From IMG/VR virus record IMGVR_UViG_2563366917_000002: 23,950 nt of DNA. The stretch is one strand, 5' to 3'. The notes beneath the pieces were generated by a model. That model was not told the origin of the DNA. It saw only the letters and a program-made list of their open reading frames with translations, and did no database searches. Shown here piece after piece: positions 7,470 to 23,707 of this stretch. The DNA comes from a virus. Taxonomy: Duplodnaviria > Heunggongvirae > Uroviricota > Caudoviricetes. The position numbers were made by a program, and so were the translations under genes. How positions within the stretch are numbered: the first letter of the stretch is position 1; each line of letters begins with the position of its first letter.

Positions 7470-8222
7470 TTATGCTGCAAGTCTCTTAACCCAAGTCTCT
7501 CTTTTGGAGAATGGTAGAACTTGGCTTGATTCATGGAAGAGTAAGGAGAGTTGTTGCATTTGATCACCAATTGCTTCGCTGTCTATAACAACAAATCTGT
7601 TGTTATACTCCTCACTTGAAGCTTTAAGATCAATTAGTTTCCCAAGCAATGAGTAAGCACTATTCCAGCTTCCTCCGTGTTTCACGCTTGATGTAAAAAC
7701 GTATTTAGGTATGTCGGTTTTTATTGTTACAGGGACGGTAATTTGATGTCCACTCAAGCCATATACGTTTTCACGAAGAGAAAGTGCGTCTCTAAGCTCT
7801 GTGTGATATAGATAATCAATAACCATACTTTCAAACTTTTCAGCTTGAACTGGCTGATACCAGTCTAACGACAAAGTTGATGCGAGTATACCAGCTCTAA
7901 TTATGTTCGATGTAATCGCACCGACATCCTTTTCTGTTGCCCAAGCAATGATTTCTCCTCGAGCATTGAGTTCTGCGCCTTCTTTAAGCAGTAATTGTCG
8001 TATCTCATCAAGTCGTTTTTTGGTAAGCGAGATCCCTCTTGCCTCCATATTCATTAAGGCATCGCATCTGTCACTAACTAAATACCTACCATTGACTTCA
8101 CGGATAAAGGCACCGACATGCTCTCCATCATCACAGTAAGTGAATGGACTGATAATTCTCAAGGTCTTGCCTATTGGATGGCATTCGAAACCTAGTTGTG
8201 AGATCACTGTTGAGCACATCAT
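7470..8222 (-). CDS. unknown protein, gene 2 of a two-gene module at the rexAB-equivalent locus
   Basis: 250-aa ORF. Its ATG overlaps the upstream gene's stop (ATGA). By eye the DNA is AT-richer than flanking phage genes. No Walker A, HEPN or obvious nuclease motif recognised. Confidence 0.6.
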   Translation of the reverse strand: MMCSTVISQLGFECHPIGKTLRIISPFTYCDDGEHVGAFIREVNGRYLVSDRCDALMNMEARGISLTKKRLDEIRQLLLKEGAELNARGEIIAWATEKDVGAITSNIIRAGILASTLSLDWYQPVQAEKFESMVIDYLYHTELRDALSLRENVYGLSGHQITVPVTIKTDIPKYVFTSSVKHGGSWNSAYSLLGKLIDLKASSEEYNNRFVVIDSEAIGDQMQQLSLLFHESSQVLPFSKRETWVKRLAA

Positions 8223-8776
8223 ATTCCAAACCCCATTTGCCCCGACTCATCTTCAAGCGGTAAAGGTATTCTCCCAGAGTAAGTTATGTTCAGATGTTTA
8301 CAGAAGTAATTCCAATACCCTACCAGGTCATCTGGGTTTATGTCATCTTCGATTGGAAACGCTATTCTATCACTATAGTATCCAGCTTCTTCATAGTATA
8401 CATGGTAGTGAGCACCGTAAATGATATCTTGGTACTTCGGATGATCGACCTTGTAACTATTCGTGTGTTTGTCAAAGTGATAGGTATCTACCGCGAAAAC
8501 CCTCTTGTTATGATAGAAAGCAATAATATTTATTTTAGGGTAAGAAATCGGGTCATCAGGTTCTGAATCCTGATCTGGTTTCCATTTCAGTTCAAACTTT
8601 AGCCCTTGTATAGGTATACAATCCTCATCCAAGGGGATGATATGGGCTTGTAGCCACATATCAGAGCGACTTGGTTTCTGTTTCCATTTAACGCCAGAAA
8701 AGTTAACTATTTTTTTACAATAAAGTACTTTATCAACTTCTACTTGGCTTGGCTGATAATCATCTATTTTTGCCAA
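8219..8776 (-). CDS. unknown protein, gene 1 of a two-gene module at the rexAB-equivalent locus
   Basis: 185-aa ORF beginning 39 nt after the cI stop. The first in-frame start is TTG at 8776, with a GGCGG-like Shine-Dalgarno upstream; the frame is closed upstream by TAA. Rich in Tyr/His/Asp; no recognised family. Confidence 0.55.
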   Translation of the reverse strand: MAKIDDYQPSQVEVDKVLYCKKIVNFSGVKWKQKPSRSDMWLQAHIIPLDEDCIPIQGLKFELKWKPDQDSEPDDPISYPKINIIAFYHNKRVFAVDTYHFDKHTNSYKVDHPKYQDIIYGAHYHVYYEEAGYYSDRIAFPIEDDINPDDLVGYWNYFCKHLNITYSGRIPLPLEDESGQMGFGI

Positions 8777-9943: not shown

Positions 9944-10240
9944 ATGGAAAGAACAAGTTACAGCAAACTATCACAGCGTGACGTTGATCGCGCAGAAACA
10001 GATTTACTTATCAATCTGTCAGCTATTACCCAGCGCGGTCTGGCAAAGATGATTGGCTGTCATGAATCGAAGATAAGCAGAACGGACTGGAGATTTATTG
10101 CTTCGGTCTTGTGTGCTTTCGGAATGGCATCAGACATCAGTCCGATTAGCAGGGCTTTTAAGTATGCGCTTGATGGACTCACCAATAAAAAACGCCCGGC
10201 GGCAACCGAGCGTTCTGAACAAATCCAGATGGAATTCTGA
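9944..10240 (+). CDS. cII: cII transcriptional activator (mosaic: divergent N-terminus, lambda-like C-terminus)
   Basis: 98-aa ORF. The C-terminus ...LTNKKRPAATERSEQIQMEF matches lambda cII as recalled; the N-terminal part differs. Confidence 0.8.
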   Translation: MERTSYSKLSQRDVDRAETDLLINLSAITQRGLAKMIGCHESKISRTDWRFIASVLCAFGMASDISPISRAFKYALDGLTNKKRPAATERSEQIQMEF

Positions 10241-10272
10241 GGTCATTACTGGATCAATCCACAGGAGTCATT

Positions 10273-11172
10273 ATGACAAATACAGCAAAAATACTCAACT
10301 TCTGCAGAGGTAACTTTGCCAAACAGGAGCGTAATGTGGCAGATCTCGATGATGGTTACGCCAGACTATCAAATATGCTGCTTGAGGCTTATTCAGGCGC
10401 AGATCTGACCAAGCGACAGTTTAAAGTGCTGCTTGCCATTCTGCGTAAAACCTATGGATGGAATAAACCAATGGACAGAATCACCGATTCTCAACTTAGC
10501 GAGATTACAAAGTTACCCGTCAAACGGTGCAATGAAGCCAAGTTAGAACTCGTCAGAATGAATATTATCAAGCAGCAAGGCGGCATGTTTGGACCAAATA
10601 AAAACATCTCAGAATGGTGTATCCCTCAAAACGAGGGAAAATCCCCTAAAACGAGGGATAAAACATCCCTCAAATTGGGGGATTGCTATCCCTCAAAACA
10701 GGGGGACACAAAAGACACTATTACAAAAGAAAAAAGAAAAGATTATTCGTCAGAGAATTCTGGCGAATCCTCTGACCAGCCAGAAAACGACCTTTCTGTG
10801 GTGAAACCGGATGCTGCAATTCAGAGCGGCAGCAAGTGGGGGACAGCAGAAGACCTGACCGCCGCAGAATGGATGTTTGACATGGTGAAGACCATCGCGC
10901 CATCAGCCAGAAAACCGAATTTTGCAGGGTGGGCTAACGATATCCGCCTGATGCGTGAACGTGACGGACGTAACCATCGCGACATGTGTGTACTGTTCCG
11001 CTGGGCATGCCAGGACAACTTCTGGTCCGGTAACGTGCTGAGCCCGGCCAAACTCCGCGACAAGTGGACCCAGCTCGAAATCAACCGTAACAAGCAACAG
11101 GCAGGTGTGACAGCCTGCAAACCAAAACTCGACCTGACAAACACTGACTGGATTTACGGGGTGGATTTATGA
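10273..11172 (+). CDS. O: replication initiator O
   Basis: 299-aa ORF matching lambda O as recalled, with the origin iterons embedded in the coding sequence. Confidence 0.95.
   Translation: MTNTAKILNFCRGNFAKQERNVADLDDGYARLSNMLLEAYSGADLTKRQFKVLLAILRKTYGWNKPMDRITDSQLSEITKLPVKRCNEAKLELVRMNIIKQQGGMFGPNKNISEWCIPQNEGKSPKTRDKTSLKLGDCYPSKQGDTKDTITKEKRKDYSSENSGESSDQPENDLSVVKPDAAIQSGSKWGTAEDLTAAEWMFDMVKTIAPSARKPNFAGWANDIRLMRERDGRNHRDMCVLFRWACQDNFWSGNVLSPAKLRDKWTQLEINRNKQQAGVTACKPKLDLTNTDWIYGVDL
10621..10750 (+). repeat. ori-lambda: four ~19-20 bp iterons plus adjacent AT-rich unwinding region
   Basis: Direct repeats atccctcaaaacgagggaaa / atcccctaaaacgagggata / catccctcaaattgggggat / ctatccctcaaaacaggggga at 10621-10705, followed by an A-rich tract at 10706-10750. 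Confidence 0.85.
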
Positions 11173-11870
11173 AAAACATCGCCGCACAGATGGTTAATTT
11201 TGACCGTGAGCAGATGCGTCGGATCGCCAACAACATGCCGGAACAGTACGACGAAAAGCCGCAGGTACAGCAGGTAGCGCAGATCATCAACGGTGTGTTC
11301 AGCCAGTTACTGGCAACTTTCCCGGCGAGTCTGGCTAACCGTGACCAGAACGAACTGAACGAAATCCGCCGCCAGTGGGTTCTGGCTTTCCGGGAAAACG
11401 GGATCACCACAATGGAACAGGTTAACGCAGGAATGCGCGTAGCCCGTCGGCAGAATCGACCATTTCTGCCATCACCCGGGCAGTTTGTTGCATGGTGCCG
11501 GGAAGAAGCATCCGTTATCGCCGGACTGCCAAACGTCAGCGAGCTGGTTGATATGGTTTACGAGTATTGCCGGAAGCGAGGCCTGTATCCGGATGCAGAG
11601 TCTTATCCGTGGAAATCGAACGCGCACTACTGGCTGGTTACCAACCTGTACCAGAACATGCGGGCCAATGCGCTGACTGACGCGGAATTACGACGCAAGG
11701 CTGCCGATGAACTGACCTGTATGACAGCGCGAATTAACCGTGGTGAGACGATACCTGAACCAGTAAAACAACTTCCTGTCATGGGCGGCAGACCTCTAAA
11801 TCGTGTTCAGGCGCTGGCGAAGATCGCAGAAATTAAAGCTAAGTTAGGACTGAAAGGAGCAAGTGTATGA
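11169..11870 (+). CDS. P: replication protein P (DnaB helicase loader)
   Basis: 233-aa ORF matching lambda P as recalled. Start overlaps the O stop. Confidence 0.95.
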   Translation: MKNIAAQMVNFDREQMRRIANNMPEQYDEKPQVQQVAQIINGVFSQLLATFPASLANRDQNELNEIRRQWVLAFRENGITTMEQVNAGMRVARRQNRPFLPSPGQFVAWCREEASVIAGLPNVSELVDMVYEYCRKRGLYPDAESYPWKSNAHYWLVTNLYQNMRANALTDAELRRKAADELTCMTARINRGETIPEPVKQLPVMGGRPLNRVQALAKIAEIKAKLGLKGASV

Positions 11871-12157
11871 CGGGCAAAGAGGCAATTATTCATTACCTGG
11901 GGACGCATAATAGCTTCTGTGCGCCGGACGTTGCCGCGCTAACAGGCGCAACAGTAACCAGCATAAATCAGGCCGCGGCTAAAATGGCACGGGCAGGTCT
12001 TCTGGTTATCGAAGGTAAGGTCTGGCGAACGGTGTATTACCGGTTTGCTACCAAGGAAGAACGGGAAGGAAAGATGAGCACGAACCTGATTTTTAAGGAG
12101 TGTCGCCAGAGTGCCACGATGAAACGGATATTGGCGGTATATGGAGTTAAAAGATGA
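11867..12157 (+). CDS. ren: Ren (Rex exclusion protection protein)
   Basis: 96-aa ORF matching lambda Ren as recalled. Start overlaps the P stop. Confidence 0.85.
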   Translation: MTGKEAIIHYLGTHNSFCAPDVAALTGATVTSINQAAAKMARAGLLVIEGKVWRTVYYRFATKEEREGKMSTNLIFKECRQSATMKRILAVYGVKR

Positions 12158-12230
12158 CCATCTACATCACTGAGCTAATAACAGGCCTGCAGGTAATCGC
12201 AGGCCTTTTTATTTGGGGGAGAGGGAAGTC

Positions 12231-12671
12231 ATGAAAAAACTAACCTTTGAAATTCGATCTCCGGCACATCAGCAAAACGCTATTCACGCAGTACAGCAAA
12301 TCCTTCCAGACCCAACCAAACCAATCGTAGTAACCATTCAGGAACGCAACCGCAGCTTAGACCAAAACAGGAAGCTATGGGCCTGCTTAGGTGACGTCTC
12401 TCGTCAGGTTGAATGGCATGGTCGCTGGCTGGATGCAGAAAGCTGGAAGTGTGTGTTTACCGCAGCATTAAAGCAGCAGGATGTTGTTCCTAACCTTGCC
12501 GGGAATGGCTTTGTGGTAATAGGCCAGTCAACCAGCAGGATGCGTGTAAGCGAATTTGCGGAGCTATTAGAGCTTATACAGGCATTCGGTACAGAGCGTG
12601 GCGTTAAGTGGTCAGACGAAGCGCGACTGGCTCTCGAATGGAAAGCGCGATGGGGAGATCGGGCTGCATGA
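12231..12671 (+). CDS. ninB: NinB (Orf-family recombination mediator)
   Basis: 146 aa from MKKLTFEIRSPAHQQNAIHAVQQ..., matching lambda NinB as recalled. The track ORF starts 6 codons upstream. Confidence 0.85.
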   Translation: MKKLTFEIRSPAHQQNAIHAVQQILPDPTKPIVVTIQERNRSLDQNRKLWACLGDVSRQVEWHGRWLDAESWKCVFTAALKQQDVVPNLAGNGFVVIGQSTSRMRVSEFAELLELIQAFGTERGVKWSDEARLALEWKARWGDRAA

Positions 12672-13195
12672 CTATCAAATCAAATACGCCAGCACACGAC
12701 AAGGACTGCTGGCAAACGCCGCTTTGGCTTTTTGATGCACTGGATATTGAGTTTGGATTCTGGCTGGATTCGGCAGCGAGCGACAAAAATGCTCTGTGCG
12801 CTCACTGGCTAACTGAGGACGACGACGCGCTCAATTCTGAGTGGGTAAGCCACGGTGCAATCTGGAATAACCCACCGTACAGCAATATCAGGCCGTGGGT
12901 GGAAAAAGCCGCTGAGCAGTGTATACAACAGCGACAGACGGTAGTGATGCTTGTGCCAGAGGATATGTCTGTCGGATGGTTCAGCAAGGCTCTGGAGAGT
13001 GTTGACGAAGTTCGTATTATCACTGATGGACGGATTAATTTTATCGAACCATCGACAGGGCTGGAGAAGAAGGGAAACAGCAAAGGCTCCATGCTGCTGA
13101 TTTGGCGACCGTTCATCAGTCCTCGACGGATGTTTACTACCGTATCCAAAGCGGCATTGATGGCGATCGGGCAGGGCGTCAGGAGGGCTGCATGA
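12668..13195 (+). CDS. phage orphan DNA N6-adenine methyltransferase (Dam-like)
   Basis: About 175 aa from the ATG overlapping the ninB stop (ATGA). Contains the catalytic NPPY motif ([10 protein letters not shown]) characteristic of N6-adenine methyltransferases. Occupies the ninC/ninD position. Confidence 0.7.
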
Positions 13196-13368
13196 GACGA
13201 CAGCGACGAAGCATCACCGACATAATCTGCGAAAACTGCAAATACCTTCCAACGAAACGCTCCAGAAATAAACGCAAGCTAATCCCAAAAGAATCTGACG
13301 TAAAAACCTTCAATTACACAGCCCACCTGTGGGATATCCGGTGGCTAAGATATCGTGCGAGGAAATGA
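13192..13368 (+). CDS. ninE: NinE
   Basis: [58 protein letters not shown] matches lambda NinE as recalled. Start overlaps the methyltransferase stop. Confidence 0.75.
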
Positions 13369-13712
13369 CAATGGATTATTCACAGTTAAGTGATTTTGAA
13401 ATTAACAGAATGGTAGGAGACATAATTTTTAAAGGCCTTTGGGCAAGTAAACCGGAAACATCAGGGAATAACACCAACAAATGGTATTACGGAAATGCTG
13501 ATACAACTTTTGAGCCATTAAATCATTTGCCTGACTACTGCAATGATCCGAGCGCTTCATGGCCGATTATTGAGAAATACAGGATTTCTATCTTAGACCA
13601 GTTAACTGAATGGTGTGTGGATGCAAAAGGCGTAAGCCCAATATTTGATACCAGACCTCTCCGCGCCGCCATGATTGTCTTTCTCCTGATGCAGGAGGCC
13701 AATAATGCTTAG
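13365..13712 (+). CDS. hypothetical nin-region protein (NinX/DUF2591-like)
   Basis: About 115-aa ORF with its ATG overlapping the ninE stop. No motif recognised. Confidence 0.45.
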
Positions 13713-13899
13713 CCCATCTCAATCCCTTCAATACCTGAAAGAAAGCATAGAGCGGGCTTCAATGTGCACAGAGTGGATTCTATCTAGGTTTAGCGCATAC
13801 AGAAGATTGCCGGTAAAGGGCATGCCAAGCAAGTCGATGCTGCATATGCAAAAGAATGCGCGCTGGAAGGTATGGCGAGAACACAGGTTATGTGGCTGA
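13705..13899 (+). CDS. ninF: NinF-like small protein
   Basis: 64-aa ORF. The N-terminus [18 protein letters not shown] resembles lambda NinF; the remainder diverges. Confidence 0.5.
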
Positions 13900-13918
13900 A
13901 AGAGGGGGTTATTAAGGC

Positions 13919-14281
13919 GTGAATACCTACAGCATCACATTACCCTGGCCTCCGAGCAATAATCGCTATTACCGCCATAATCGCGGGCGCACGCACGTCA
14001 GCGCAGAGGGGCAGGCATACCGCGATAACGTCGCCCGAATCATTAAAAACGCAATGCTGGATATCGGCCTGGCTATGCCTGTGAAAATCCGCATTGAGTG
14101 CCACATGCCGGATCGCCGTCGCCGTGACCTGGATAATCTGCAAAAAGCCGCTTTTGACGCACTCACTAAAGCAGGTTTCTGGCTGGATGATGCTCAGGTC
14201 GTTGATTACCGCGTTGTGAAGATGCCTGTTACCAAAGGTGGGAGGCTGGAACTGACCATCACCGAAATGGGGAATGAATGA
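13919..14281 (+). CDS. rusA: RusA Holliday-junction resolvase
   Basis: 120-aa ORF ([50 protein letters not shown]...) matching E. coli DLP12 RusA as recalled. Confidence 0.9.
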
Positions 14282-15075: not shown

Positions 15076-16158
15076 TTAGAACTGATAAACCAGACCTACA
15101 GCGACGATGTCGTCGGTATCAATACCAGCTGTTTTGGTAAACTTACTATCGTCAATTAAGTTGATTTTGTAATCAACAAAAGTGGACATGTTTTTATTAA
15201 AGTAGTAAGTAGCACCGACATCGACATACTTGACTAAGTCTCGGTCACCATGAACACCAAGGTCTTTACCTTTTGACTGAAGGTAAGCAACAGATGGACG
15301 CAGACCGAAGTCAAACTGATATTGTGCTACTGCTTCAAAGTTTTGTGCTTTGTTTGCAATATGGTTATTACCAAAAACGGTCATATTCTGAGTTTCAGAA
15401 TATGTGGTAGCCAGATAGATATTGTTCGCATCATATTTCAGGCCTGCAGCCCATACTTCCGCATTTTTGCCGGAGGCATTGAATTTGCTCTTACCATAGG
15501 CGACCTGACCGTCAGTGCGATCTGATTTAGCATAGGTTGCACCCACGCCGAATCCTTCATACTCATAAGTAGTGGAGAAACCGAAACCATCACCATTGGC
15601 TTCAGTTACGTCAGTGCGGTCATTTTTACCCTGATACTGAGCAGCAAAGTTCAGGCCATCGACCAGACCAAAGAAGTCGTTGTTACGATAAGTTGCAACA
15701 CCAGTAGTGCGACCAGTCATGAACACATCTGTTTGGGTCCAGGTATCACCACCGAATTCTGGCAGAACGTCAGTCCACGCACCGATGTCGTATGCTACAC
15801 CGTAGTTACGGCCGTAATCGATTGAGCCGTAATCACCAAATTTCAGGCCTGCAAATGCAAGACGGGTTTTGTCTTTGGAAGAACCTTGAGATTCAGCACG
15901 GTTGCCTTTGAATTCATATTCCCACTGACCGAAACCAGTCAGTTGATCGTTGATTTGGGTTTCACCTTTGAAGCCAAGACGGGCATAAGTAGTATCACCA
16001 TCATCTGCATCATTAGAGGAGAAGTAGTGCTTGGCATTAACTTTCCCGTATAGATCCAGCTTGTTACTGTCTTTATTATAAATTTCAGCTGCCTGAGCAG
16101 ACATCGCCATCAGTACTGATGCAGCTACAGCAGAAATTGCCACTGTTAATTTTTTCAT
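15076..16158 (-). CDS. nmpC: outer-membrane general porin, NmpC/OmpD (Lc) family, phage-borne moron
   Basis: 360 aa from [23 protein letters not shown] (signal peptide) with the porin C-terminus ...VAVGLVYQF. Same position and orientation as nmpC in DLP12. Appears intact. Confidence 0.9.
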
Positions 16159-16587
16159 TGTACGCCCTTTTTTTGAACTATTATTAAAAAATGATGTCAC
16201 TGCGCGATAAATATTCATCTAATCAATGTGATTATTTCAAGATGTAAGTTTTAGTTTCTCATTTAATTTGTGAAGTAGATCTCTATTTTTATCTGAACCT
16301 TTTCTATCTAATCCTATTCATGGCTCTTGTCTGAACAAAAATAAATCTATTAGCTAATTTATATTAATGGCACTTATTTATAAGTGCTCTATAATTCTTT
16401 AGCTTAATTTAAACAAACTAAAAATAACATTGGAAATTATTAACTGGTTATTTGTTGAAGTTTTCTTATGCATTTGTGGTGGTGTTTTGAACACTCGGTG
16501 GCATTCTCACAAATATCATTTAGTAGTTTACGTACGTAAAAAATTGGTTATGCTGTTAAGAGTGGTTACTTCGTCACACAGCTTAAA

Positions 16588-17948: not shown

Positions 17949-18242
17949 TTATTGTGAGCAATACACACGCGCTTCCAGCGGAGTATAAATGCCTAAAGTA
18001 ATAAAACCGAGCAATCCATTTACGAATGTTTGCTGGGTTTCTGTTTTAACAACATTTTCTGCACCACCACAAATTTTTGCTGCATCGACAGTTTTCTTCT
18101 GCCCAATTCCCGAAACGAAGAAATGATGGGTGATGGTTTCCTTTGGTGTTACTGCTGTAGGTTTGTTTCCAACAGTAAACGTCTGTTGAGCACATCCTGT
18201 AATAAGCATTGCCAGAGCGGCAGAAAACAACATTTTTTTCAT
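17949..18242 (-). CDS. bor: Bor serum-resistance lipoprotein
   Basis: 97 aa from MKKMLFSAALAMLITGCAQQ..., matching lambda Bor as recalled. Lipobox LITGC. Confidence 0.9.
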   Translation of the reverse strand: MKKMLFSAALAMLITGCAQQTFTVGNKPTAVTPKETITHHFFVSGIGQKKTVDAAKICGGAENVVKTETQQTFVNGLLGFITLGIYTPLEARVYCSQ

Positions 18243-18722
18243 CTTATTATCCTGCATTGTTAAAAACGGCAGAATCCTATGTGACAACAATTAAACGATA
18301 GTTAAATGGATTGATGAAAATTAAAACTACACAGGTGGGCTCAGACTATTGGAGGAAGTTGGGGACACTCAGAATCCTGTGGAATGAAATAAACCGGTCT
18401 ATCCGTCCATTACCCTTTTAGCTGCGCTGTATCGTCGCCGTATTCCCGCATTAACCATGACCGTAGCCCGACGGGGAATTCCTTCTGCGTGAGTGTGCGG
18501 GAATAATTAAAAACGATGCACACCGGGTTTTTACCGCGTTAATGATTCGCGGGTTTATCCCGGTGCGATGGTGGAAGAAACAGGAAGCTGTATTACAGAA
18601 AGTGCTACTACTGTATCCCGATGCGATGTATGTAATGTGAGTCAGATAATGGCACAGGATGTGGTGATGTGGCAGTCTGGAACACAGGATATATTGTCAG
18701 AATAAGACCCGTAGGAATAAAA

Positions 18723-19049
18723 ATGAAAAGACGCCTTTTACTACTTTTTCTGTTATCTGTCCTGGCAGTGGGATGCTCGCAGCAAAAAGCTGATGAGCCC
18801 CGGCAATTAGTGACGGTGTATCCACGATATCCGGAATATGCTGCAGCAAATTATATCAAGGGGCTGGTTGAGGTTAAGTTCGATATTGGTGCTGATGGGA
18901 CTGTGACACGGATCGTTTTTCTCCGCTCAGAGCCTCATAATTTGTTTCGTGATGAAGTGGTGAAGGCCATGGCGAAATGGCGATTTGAAAAGAATCGCCC
19001 CTGTCAGGGAGTGAAGAGACAATTTATCTTTACGCCGTCACGTCCTTGA
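18723..19049 (+). CDS. lipoprotein consisting of a TonB C-terminal-like domain
   Basis: 108 aa from MKRRLLLLFLLSVLAVGCSQ (lipobox LAVGC). Residues ~30-95 align to the E. coli TonB C-terminal domain (ours YPRYPEYAAANYIKGLVEVKFDIGADGTVTRIVFLRSEPHNLFRDEVVKAMAKWRFE versus TonB [57 protein letters not shown], from memory). Confidence 0.6.
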   Translation: MKRRLLLLFLLSVLAVGCSQQKADEPRQLVTVYPRYPEYAAANYIKGLVEVKFDIGADGTVTRIVFLRSEPHNLFRDEVVKAMAKWRFEKNRPCQGVKRQFIFTPSRP

Positions 19050-20549: not shown

Positions 20550-21306
20550 TGCAGCCGGTGCGATAGCTACAGGGCTTTTATCTCTCATTATTCCTGTTCC
20601 ACTGACGACAGTTCAGTGGGCCAATAAACATTATTACCTTCCTAAAGAGTCGTCTTATACCCCGGGGCGATGGGAAACACTGCCGTTTCAGGTTGGCATC
20701 ATGAACTGTATGGGCAACGATCTGATTCGCACGGTTAACCTGATTAAATCTGCCCGTGTTGGTTATACAAAGATGTTGCTGGGAGTGGAGGCTTATTTTA
20801 TTGAGCATAAATCACGCAACAGCCTTCTTTTTCAGCCCACGGACTCAGCTGCTGAAGATTTTATGAAATCTCATGTTGAGCCAACGATAAGGGATGTTCC
20901 TGCATTGCTGGAGCTGGCTCCATGGTTCGGAAGAAAACACCGCGATAATACGCTCACCCTGAAGCGTTTTTCCTCCGGTGTGGGGTTCTGGTGTCTGGGT
21001 GGTGCGGCAGCAAAAAACTACCGTGAAAAATCCGTGGATGTGGTCTGTTATGACGAGCTTTCCTCGTTCGAACCGGATGTTGAAAAAGAGGGTTCGCCAA
21101 CCCTGCTGGGGGATAAACGTATTGAGGGCTCTGTATGGCCAAAATCCATTCGCGGCTCGACGCCTAAAATCAAAGGCTCCTGCCAGATCGAAAAAGCCGC
21201 TAACGAGTCGGCACACTTCATGCGTTTTTATGTGCCCTGTCCGCACTGTGGGGAGGAGCAGTATCTGAAATTTGGCGATGATGCCTCGCCTATGAGACGA
21301 CAATAA
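20521..21306 (+). pseudogene. A: terminase large subunit (gpA) 5' fragment, interrupted by an IS insertion
   Basis: Homologous to the lambda gpA N-terminus (...VQWANKHYYLPKESSYTPGRWETLPFQ...). Reading frame is lambda-like up to ...KFGDDASP at 21291, then runs into the IS and stops at 21306. Confidence 0.85.
21285..21291. repeat. target-site duplication (left copy), CTCGCCT
   Basis: The 7-bp sequence ctcgcct occurs at 21285-21291 and again at 23701-23707, flanking the IS. Removing the IS and one copy restores the gpA frame. Confidence 0.6.
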
Positions 21307-21383
21307 CTCAGTCCGCCTGGCGCCGATTATTCTGGCCGGTTTTGTAACCTGAGTGTCATTTACATGATCCAACAGGAAATGGC

Positions 21384-22883
21384 GTGACGCTCAATACTTC
21401 TCAGGTCAGTTACTATATGACTCAGCGTAAGAAAGGTATAACTCAGCATATCTCGGCCATGAAGGCTGGTATCTCAGTCCGTTCTGGTCGTCGGATCGAA
21501 AAAGGAGAGTGGGCAAAAAACAGTGTTCGGCACTGGCGCACACGCAAAGATCCTCTGGAAGCTGTGTGGGACAGCATGCTTGTTCCTCTGTTGAAAGAGA
21601 GGCCGGCTCTGACACCAACAACTCTGCTGGAGATGCTACAGGATAAATATCCCGGCCAGTACCCCAACAGCCTTCGAAGAACAATGCAACGGCGGGTCCG
21701 CGAATGGAAGCTACAGTATGGTGCAGAGCAGGAGGTCATGTTCCGCCAGCGACATCAGCCCGGTCTGCGAGGTCTGTCGGACTTTACTGAACTGAAAGGT
21801 GTAGTTGTCACCATCGCCGGTAAGTTGTTGGCGCATAAGTTGTATCACTTCCGTCTGGAATGGAGCCACTGGAGCTGGATGCGGGTTGTGCTGGGTGGTG
21901 AGAGCTTCTCTGCTCTGGCTGAAGGTCTGCAGGAAGCCCTCGGACAACTGGGCGGAGTGCCGGTAGAACATAAAACGGACAGCCTGAGGGCAGCATGGAA
22001 ACAACAGGGCGAAGATGGACGCCGCGAGCTGACTGAGCGTTATGCTGCTCTCTGTCAGCACTACGGAATGCAGGGCGTACACAATAATGCCGGTCGGGGC
22101 CACGAAAATGGCTCGGTTGAAAGTGCCCACGGACATCTGAAAAGGCGTATCTGTCAGGCGCTGATACTGCGGGGCAGTAACGACTTCAGCACCATAGAAG
22201 AATATCAGGCCTTCATCACTCAGCAGGTTATGCGGCACAACCGTAACAATCAGGATCTGGTCAAGGAAGAACGTCTTCATCTGAAACCGCTGCCGCTTCG
22301 TCGCAGTGCTGACTATGATGAGCTGACTGTGAGGGTTAGCCGCAGCAGTACCATCAATGTGAAGCACGTCGTCTACAGCGTACCTTCCCGGCTTGTAGGT
22401 CAACTGTTACGGGTCCGGTTATGGGACGATCGTCTGAGCTGTTACGTTGGCAGCAGCGAGGTCATGAGCTGCCCACGTGTCAGACCAGAAAAAGGGAAGA
22501 CGCGGGCCCGTCGTATCGACTTCCGACATGTGATCGACAGTCTGGCAAAAAAGCCCGGTGCGTTCTGCCATGCAACGCTGAGAAATGACATCCTGCCAGA
22601 CGATGAATGGCGGAGGCTGTGGCGTCGCTTATGTAATCATCTGGAACCCGACATGGCAGGCAGGCTGATGGTACATGCTCTGAAACTGGCTGCAGGATAC
22701 GACGATATCTCAGTCGTGGCAAAAGGTATGGAGCAGATGCTGAATACCCCGGGAAACGTGGATCTGCACCGGCTGATGCGCTTCCTGGGTATAAAGGAAA
22801 AGGCGTTGCCGGTAGTCAATGTGAAACAGCATAACCTGAGCAGTTATGAGCAACTACTGCGTGGCAAGGGAGGTTCGCAGTGA
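21384..22883 (+). CDS. istA: IS21-family transposase IstA
   Basis: 499-aa ORF; the track start is GTG at 21384, and an internal ATG at 21417 is an alternative. N-terminal HTH (ITQHISAMKAGISVRSGRRIEKGEW) followed by a DDE-type integrase core. Confidence 0.85.
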   Translation: MTLNTSQVSYYMTQRKKGITQHISAMKAGISVRSGRRIEKGEWAKNSVRHWRTRKDPLEAVWDSMLVPLLKERPALTPTTLLEMLQDKYPGQYPNSLRRTMQRRVREWKLQYGAEQEVMFRQRHQPGLRGLSDFTELKGVVVTIAGKLLAHKLYHFRLEWSHWSWMRVVLGGESFSALAEGLQEALGQLGGVPVEHKTDSLRAAWKQQGEDGRRELTERYAALCQHYGMQGVHNNAGRGHENGSVESAHGHLKRRICQALILRGSNDFSTIEEYQAFITQQVMRHNRNNQDLVKEERLHLKPLPLRRSADYDELTVRVSRSSTINVKHVVYSVPSRLVGQLLRVRLWDDRLSCYVGSSEVMSCPRVRPEKGKTRARRIDFRHVIDSLAKKPGAFCHATLRNDILPDDEWRRLWRRLCNHLEPDMAGRLMVHALKLAAGYDDISVVAKGMEQMLNTPGNVDLHRLMRFLGIKEKALPVVNVKQHNLSSYEQLLRGKGGSQ

Positions 22884-23635
22884 GCAATATCCATCACCTT
22901 GAACGCAGCCTGCGTAAACTACGCCTGACACGAGTTGGAGCTGAATGGCACGCTCTGGAAAAACGAGCACTGGCAGAAGGCTGGACACCATCGCGCTATC
23001 TTCTGACGCTATGCAATGAAGAACTCCTGTGGCGCGAGAGTGAAAAACTGCGTCGTTATAAAAAGGAGGCCCGGTTGCCAGTTGCCAAAACGCTAAGCGA
23101 ATACGACTTCAGTCAGGTGCCGGAACTGAATGGAGCTCAGTTCCGGCAACTCTGTGAAACGACAGACTGGGTTGATGCAGGAGAAAACGTTCTGCTGTTC
23201 GGAGCCAGCGGGTTGGGGAAAAGCCATCTGGCGGCAGCGATCGTGGATGGCGTAGTAGGCCAGGGCTACCGGGCCCGGTTCTACAGCGCAGGAGAGTTGT
23301 TGCAGGAACTACGTAAAGCCAGAGCGCAGTTGAAACTGAATGAGCTGCTACTGAAACTGGATCGCTACCGGGTGATAGTGGTGGATGATCTTGGCTATGT
23401 CAAACGCGACAGCGCCGAAACGGGAGTACTGTTCGAGTTAATAGCGCATCGCTATGAACGTGGGAGCCTGGTGATAACCAGTAACCATCCGTTCAGCATG
23501 TGGGGCAGCATCTTCGTGGATGAGACTATGGCGGTGGCGGCGGCAGACCGGCTGATCCATCACGGATATATGTTCGAACTGAAAGGTGAAAGCTACAGGA
23601 AAAAGACAGCGAAGGCAGTAACAAGCGCGACTTGA
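22880..23635 (+). CDS. istB: IS21-family helper ATPase IstB (DnaC-like AAA+)
   Basis: 251-aa ORF overlapping the istA stop. Walker A GASGLGKSHLAAA and Walker B VIVVDDLGY. Confidence 0.9.
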   Translation: MSNIHHLERSLRKLRLTRVGAEWHALEKRALAEGWTPSRYLLTLCNEELLWRESEKLRRYKKEARLPVAKTLSEYDFSQVPELNGAQFRQLCETTDWVDAGENVLLFGASGLGKSHLAAAIVDGVVGQGYRARFYSAGELLQELRKARAQLKLNELLLKLDRYRVIVVDDLGYVKRDSAETGVLFELIAHRYERGSLVITSNHPFSMWGSIFVDETMAVAAADRLIHHGYMFELKGESYRKKTAKAVTSAT

Positions 23636-23700
23636 TGTCGCACTGAAGGGTGCGGCCAGTATAGTTGGCGCGAGTCGGCAAAACTAGTTGACGTCTAATA

Positions 23701-23707
23701 CTCGCCT
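23701..23707. repeat. target-site duplication (right copy), CTCGCCT
   Basis: See the left copy at 21285-21291. Confidence 0.6.

Follow-up and report, generated by a model that had tools for sequence, protein, structure and literature searches.

An orphan PF05869-family adenine methyltransferase, probably GATC-directed, takes the place of ninC and ninD in a lambdoid prophage of E. coli

The phage-borne Dam methyltransferase of Haemophilus phage HP1, reportedly described by Piekarowicz and Bujnicki in 1999, is presumably the founding member of the phage methyltransferase family PF05869/TIGR01712. A protein 99% identical to the one considered here was reportedly cloned in 2001 by Radlinska and Bujnicki and is said to methylate GATC. 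The enzyme M.EcoVT2Dam 'is known to target 5'-GATC-3'', as worded in a passage of PMC6602927 that cites Radlinska & Bujnicki 2001. A previous study showed that the Dam protein of phage Phi24B is 100% identical to NP_050531.1 of VT2-Sakai and 99% identical to AAF31137 of HK97 (PMC3342100). In a prophage of S. aureus, a Dam-homologous adenine methyltransferase with NPPY, PamA, makes DNA DpnI-sensitive, and point mutations in the NPPY active site abolish this sensitivity (PMC12435837). Another 'Dam homologue' of Stx phages, M.EcoGV / M.EcoPA8orf6770P, methylates 16S rRNA together with a partner, PNB-2 (PMC10810198). The GATC evidence for the PF05869 family appears to come from expression in cells and not from purified enzyme. 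GATC assays of such enzymes typically use over-expressed protein, and it has been cautioned that this can give off-target methylation (PMC10810198).

The window, i.e. the whole stretch of 23,950 nucleotides analysed here, is a lambdoid prophage adjoining icd in E. coli, according to the RefSeq annotation of an identical prophage. The gene under study lies between two nin genes:

12231-12671, + strand: ninB, recombination mediator of the Orf family (PF05772, E 1.1e-54); its stop overlaps the methyltransferase start
12668-13195, + strand: orphan phage N6-adenine DNA methyltransferase gene (translation, PF05869, TIGR01712, PHROG 111, PADLOC oMTase, RefSeq CDS)
13192-13368, + strand: ninE (PF05322, E 1.8e-41); its start overlaps the methyltransferase stop

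The reading frame translates into 175 aa with no internal stops; its ATG (12668-12670) overlaps the TGA of ninB (12669-12671) as ATGA, and its TGA (13193-13195) overlaps the ATG of ninE (13192-13194) in the same manner. The sequence-only reading had proposed an ORF at 12668-13195 overlapping the ninB stop and carrying an NPPY catalytic motif. The ORF coincides exactly with the RefSeq CDS of the 100% identical prophage (L001, 13168-13695, which is the window numbering plus 500), where it is named 'phage N-6-adenine-methyltransferase', and NPPY is found at residues 68-71. On the 3' side of ninE, the Pfam scan identified NinX, RusA, and then the Q antiterminator. A longer GTG-initiated ORF (12608-13195, 195 aa) was rejected, as homologues begin at the ATG, RefSeq uses the ATG, and the extension from 12608 onward also overlaps ninB in another frame; an antisense ORF at 12802-13149 (115 aa) was set aside as a shadow of the coding region.

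An HMM search against PF05869, 'DNA N-6-adenine-methyltransferase (Dam)', which had been suggested as a check on the assignment, was strongly positive: the match is full-length (profile positions 1-167 of 169), with 219.1 bits against a cut-off of 28.1 bits (E 3.7e-65). The NCBIfam equivalog TIGR01712, 'phage N-6-adenine-methyltransferase', is matched over positions 1-165 of 165 with 265.6 bits, where the cut-off is 97.05 bits (E 1.2e-79). The protein also matches PHROG 111, 'DNA methyltransferase', and its best PADLOC match is 'oMTase' (orphan methyltransferase). Two short segments carry the motifs of the enzyme:

12764-12781, + strand: codons of L33-D34-S35-A36-A37-S38, putatively a degenerate motif I that forms the SAM-binding loop behind the first beta strand; placed by invariance and by the strand of the model
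12869-12880, + strand: codons of catalytic motif IV, N68-P69-P70-Y71

Motif IV, of the general form (D/N)PP(Y/F/W), is thus present as NPPY, and N68, P69, P70, and Y71 are all invariant in an alignment of 33 homologues with 59-98% identity (alignment A1). Invariant in the same alignment are T17-P18 as well as L33, D34, and A36, with D34 sitting in LDxAA after the first strand. The AlphaFold model (pLDDT 86) shows the class I (Rossmann-type) SAM-dependent methyltransferase fold and matches the cores of the N6-adenine methyltransferases M.TaqI and E. coli Dam. The putative motif I segment lies in strand 31-35 of this model, and from the class I fold the L33-S38 segment is putatively assigned to SAM binding. 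Sequence searches for a solved structure, run both with the protein alone and with a profile, returned only chance matches (E > 0.2). Judged by these family matches, the window protein belongs to the known PF05869/TIGR01712 phage family and amounts in practice to an allele within it.

The gene (528 bp) is found at no less than 95% identity in 1566 of 5426 complete E. coli genomes, about 29%, and 100% identical copies are present in E. coli Nissle 1917, ATCC 11775, NU14, and others. Among the E. coli matches listed, all are annotated 'phage N-6-adenine-methyltransferase' and all are flanked by NinB and NinE. The tblastn search identified a homologue in 1906 phage records (244 at 95% identity or more); Stx1- and Stx2-converting phages are among the records with the gene, as are phages named Lambda_*. 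The ninB-methyltransferase-ninE-ninX block is 98.6-100% identical in phages ev207, ev017, PhiR57_1, and others. The gene is therefore already known, routinely annotated, and very widespread, and the window holds an intact copy. It is extremely unlikely that the frame is open by chance or is a pseudogene that has been inactivated; the one point in its favor is that this prophage is defective, with an IS in the terminase gene, whereas the gene itself shows full-length HMM matches, intact and invariant catalytic residues, a confident model, and the conservation at 95% identity or more in the 1566 genomes above. The discovery value of this copy is small, since automatic annotation names the gene and dedicated Pfam and NCBIfam families exist.

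Canonical Dam enzymes (E. coli Dam, T4 Dam, and DpnM), which we take to be Pfam family PF02086, have an alpha-class layout, in which the recognition domain is inserted between the SAM-binding and catalytic halves. They carry DPPY where the window protein carries NPPY, and the solved Dam, T4 Dam, and DpnM chains have 241-258 aa, compared with 175 aa here. Only about 30 residues separate putative motif I (33-38) from motif IV (68-71) in the window protein, with no inserted recognition domain, and a separate DNA-recognition domain is absent from the AlphaFold model as well. Compared with Dam-type structures, the model shows 8-11% identity over about 105 aligned residues. A Pfam scan of the methyltransferase down to E 0.01 returned PF05869 alone, with the canonical Dam family absent; the protein has neither the canonical Dam profile match nor the combination of DPPY and an inserted recognition domain. 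The term 'Dam-like' used in the sequence-only reading is consequently apt for function, given the reported GATC target, but not for family, as only PF05869 is matched and identity to E. coli Dam is 11%. The window protein would work like Dam, with a reported GATC target and N6-adenine chemistry, while standing outside the canonical Dam family. HP1 Dam, a member of the same Pfam and NCBIfam families, is likened to the window protein by family only; it comes from a P2-like Haemophilus phage, whereas the window gene comes from a lambdoid nin region.

The window protein is identical at 174 of 175 residues to VT2-Sakai orf32 (NP_050531.1), and equally (174/175) to the Phi24B Dam protein (ADN68423.1). 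The single substitution is D51 in the window protein versus A51 in the VT2-Sakai and Phi24B proteins, and position 51 is variable in the family (alignment A1). A second methyltransferase that could be the real M.EcoVT2Dam was sought in VT2-Sakai, and none is annotated in the rest of the genome; orf4 (298 aa) was rejected as a candidate, because it is a DUF551 protein and not a methyltransferase. Since orf32 is the sole methyltransferase annotated in VT2-Sakai, we take it to be M.EcoVT2Dam, which links the window gene to a CHARACTERISED enzyme. The genes of this type are of equal length to the window gene and have the same ninB-methyltransferase-ninE position and the same ATGA-overlap junctions. 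In VT2-Sakai, the methyltransferase and ninE DNA is 97.7% identical to the window, whereas VT2-Sakai ninB has no DNA similarity to the window ninB, which is lambda-like. Near-identical copies of M.EcoVT2Dam are found in Phi24B, HK97 (AAF31137), 933W-type Stx phages, and wild lambda-like phages. Following what is reported for M.EcoVT2Dam, and with 99% identity to orf32, the window methyltransferase, in its D51 form, is predicted to target the adenine of GATC.

A DNA adenine methyltransferase with non-GATC, relaxed, or no specificity, like M.EcoGII, was considered as an alternative. The model lacks a discrete target-recognition domain, as such an enzyme might, and E. coli prophage orphans that are M.EcoGI/GII homologues have been predicted to be 'nonspecific' (Table 3 of PMC6602927). 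However, these M.EcoGI/GII homologues are distinct from M.EcoVT2Dam (PMC6602927), and the enzyme to which the window protein is 99% identical is reportedly GATC-specific, the sole difference being at a variable position. PamA, a prophage NPPY methyltransferase likened to the window protein by description and NPPY site only and not by sequence comparison, also gives GATC methylation (PMC12435837). A departure from GATC is thus highly improbable, and GATC is kept as the predicted target.

In a further reading (ALTERNATIVES), the protein would methylate RNA (e.g. rRNA), perhaps with a partner subunit, instead of acting primarily on DNA. The precedent is that another 'Dam-like' Stx-phage enzyme proved to be a 16S rRNA methyltransferase with a partner (PMC10810198); M.EcoGV / M.EcoPA8orf6770P is, like the window gene, prophage-borne, orphan, and annotated as a GATC adenine methyltransferase in Stx/lambdoid phages. 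Unlike the window protein, which belongs to PF05869 and has NPPY, it belongs to the MT-A70 family, has DPPW, is encoded at the gp5 position, and needs a partner (PMC10810198). One prophage is moreover listed with M.EcoVT2Dam and the M.EcoGV homologue as two distinct genes (PMC6602927). Neither DPPW nor an MT-A70 profile match was found in the window protein, which has NPPY and no Pfam family besides PF05869. The 2023 rRNA methyltransferase finding was therefore not applied to the window gene, as it concerns a different gene (DPPW, MT-A70, gp5 position), and the chance that RNA is the main substrate is slim. It is also conceivable, though very unlikely, that the enzyme would not act alone as a plain GATC DNA methylase and would need a partner (e.g. 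a neighbouring nin product) or another substrate, which might be RNA or replication intermediates; we consider this because the enzyme has 175 residues and no target-recognition domain. The preferred reading is a DNA methyltransferase directed to GATC.

Aligned to lambda, window positions 10178-12671 (cII through O, P, ren, and ninB) are 97.3% identical. The similarity ends exactly at the ninB stop codon (12671) and resumes at 13199, seven bases into ninE (13199-13365, 94.6%); the interval between these lambda-similar blocks is 527 bp in the window versus 1012 bp (ninC+ninD) in lambda. The earlier proposal that the methyltransferase replaces ninC/ninD is thus exact to the base by this alignment. 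The accompanying claim of a remodelled nin region stands insofar as ninC/ninD are swapped out, but the arrangement is not special to the window, being a standard and very common lambdoid mosaic variant that HK97, Stx, and wild lambda-like phages have too. The lambda ninC and ninD sequences, of which ninC is annotated as a phosphoadenosine phosphosulfate reductase-like protein, are unrelated to the window methyltransferase, whereas the ninB-ninE slot and the GGGCTGCATGA / GCTGCATGA junctions are held in common. To judge from the aligned sequences, the methyltransferase in place of ninC+ninD is a classic lambdoid mosaic module swap. The junction motif was located as follows:

12661-12671, + strand: left junction motif GGGCTGCATGA, comprising the end of the Shine-Dalgarno spacer and the ATGA overlap (11-mer recurrence)
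13185-13195, + strand: right junction motif GGGCTGCATGA, the same 11-mer as at the left border
3075 and 3946 in lambda (L002): copies of the junction motif
3428 in VT2-Sakai (L003): copy of the junction motif

The 11-mer is also present at the lambda ninB/ninC and VT2-Sakai ninB/methyltransferase junctions, and a 9-base version (GCTGCATGA) is found at lambda ninC/ninD; across the three phages, one or the other form marks several borders between nin genes, on both sides of the swapped module. A previous study describes ATGA overlaps as typical of the nin regions of every lambdoid phage (PMC8022706). From general lambdoid mosaicism, it is plausible that the shared junctions act as a crossover site for nin module exchange at gene borders. 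At 12657, 11 bases before the methyltransferase start codon, the Shine-Dalgarno/spacer region contains a GATC site (GGAGATCGGGCTGCATG); the equivalent lambda ninB/ninC junction has GGAGACAGGGCTGCATG, and the placement of the site near this gene is probably a coincidence. Further downstream, between ninX and rusA (13705-13922, + strand), a 64-aa ORF without a Pfam match is followed by a DUF1364 remnant, which RefSeq marks as an N-terminally truncated pseudogene, and this suggests a deletion in that part of the nin region.

The sequence-only reading was also right that no restriction endonuclease adjoins the gene: its flanks are NinB and NinE, and none is annotated in the window. Among the 44 RefSeq features of the identical prophage no restriction endonuclease is named, and no nuclease family was found when the unnamed neighbours were scanned with Pfam and PADLOC. 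The adjacent cognate endonuclease gene of a type II restriction-modification system is thus absent. The methyltransferase could still be the modification half of a restriction-modification or defence system with its nuclease elsewhere in the prophage, and two genes at the rexAB position (7470-8222 and 8219-8776, - strand) match PDC-M24B and PDC-M24A. However, these two genes belong to a different operon about 4 kb off on the other strand, and show no nuclease family; VT2-Sakai and Phi24B, whose immunity regions differ, have ninB-methyltransferase-ninE without the PDC-M24 pair. With no restriction enzyme annotated in the window and the orphan class as the best PADLOC match, a hidden nuclease partner is scarcely credible, and the gene is best described as an orphan. 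GATC is mildly under-represented in the window (74 observed versus 92-106 expected), similar to other 4-bp palindromes, and as a sign of restriction pressure GATC avoidance gave no signal there.

The transcription unit of the methyltransferase has, upstream of the gene in the ren-ninB gap, the following element:

12183-12216, + strand: intrinsic terminator at the tR2 position

The terminator has an 8-bp stem with 6 GC pairs, followed by TTTTATTT, and the gap that contains it is collinear with lambda. A promoter of the methyltransferase's own was sought, and the region has 3 promoter-like sites compared with 3.8 expected from shuffles. The terminator at 12183-12206 in the tR2 position, together with no excess of promoter-like sites, argues for a delayed-early function. 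In Phi24B, dam expression was found to change significantly on prophage induction (PMC3342100). As to timing, we infer that the gene belongs to the delayed-early rightward operon, downstream of a tR2-type terminator: transcription from pR would read through to it once N antitermination acts, translation would be coupled to ninB and ninE through the ATGA overlaps, and the enzyme would be made mainly after induction or infection.

The product is a minimal SAM-dependent enzyme of 175 aa from the phage 'HP1 Dam / M.EcoVT2Dam' family of DNA N6-adenine methyltransferases; it would methylate the GATC adenine, the same site as host Dam, while belonging to a different sequence family. In lambda and P22, host Dam leaves virion DNA under-methylated, and replication that runs ahead of modification is a possible reason (PMC8022706). 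The phage enzyme may keep phage DNA fully GATC-methylated when rapid replication outpaces host Dam. Once packaged, genomes methylated in this way could be guarded, in the next host, against enzymes that cut GATC in a methylation-sensitive manner, and such methylation could avoid MutH nicking and SeqA binding on hemi- or unmethylated GATC as well as altered use of methylation-sensitive promoters. Taken as a whole, an orphan PF05869-family GATC methyltransferase that is expressed as a delayed-early function and keeps replicating phage DNA methylated is very probable. What the analysis shows is the family, the catalytic motif, the fold, the orphan character of the gene and its position, and the near-identity of the product to an enzyme that is reportedly characterised; the timing of expression and the biological benefit are what we infer. 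It is counted against the proposed role that E. coli already has Dam, and the gain from a second GATC methylase is only proposed. Why so many lambdoid phages encode another GATC methylase when their host is Dam-positive, and whether it affects induction, packaging, host range, or host gene expression, is a general question for the family, and a copy in an IS-interrupted prophage does not advance it.

The insertion and its parts are located as follows:

21292-23700, + strand: ISEc10 (IS21 family), 2409 bp, inserted in the large terminase subunit gene
21384-22883: istA of ISEc10
22880-23635: istB of ISEc10
21285-21291 and 23701-23707: 7-bp target duplication CTCGCCT flanking ISEc10

Copies of ISEc10 in CFT073 and on plasmids match this one at 100% identity, and the insertion is absent from otherwise 100% identical prophages (ATCC 11775 and others). 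Because it interrupts the terminase gene and is absent from otherwise identical prophages, the prophage copy that carries it is probably unable to package DNA, and the methyltransferase gene in it may never serve a productive phage.

The two overlapping genes on the - strand at 7470-8222 and 8219-8776 lie between N and cI, in the position of lambda rexA/rexB. Their products are a DUF1828 protein of 249 aa and a protein of 184 aa that matches DUF6978 weakly, and the matches of the two genes to the PADLOC candidate defence families have E 7e-10 (PDC-M24B) and E 5e-4 (PDC-M24A); they may be an anti-phage pair expressed in the lysogen. Finally, cargo genes were identified in and after the Q-to-lysis interval (15076-16218, - strand; 17949-18290, - strand; 18669-19049, + strand), and this late-region cargo comprises an OmpC-type porin (nmpC-like), the serum-survival lipoprotein iss (bor-like), and a TonB C-terminal-domain protein.
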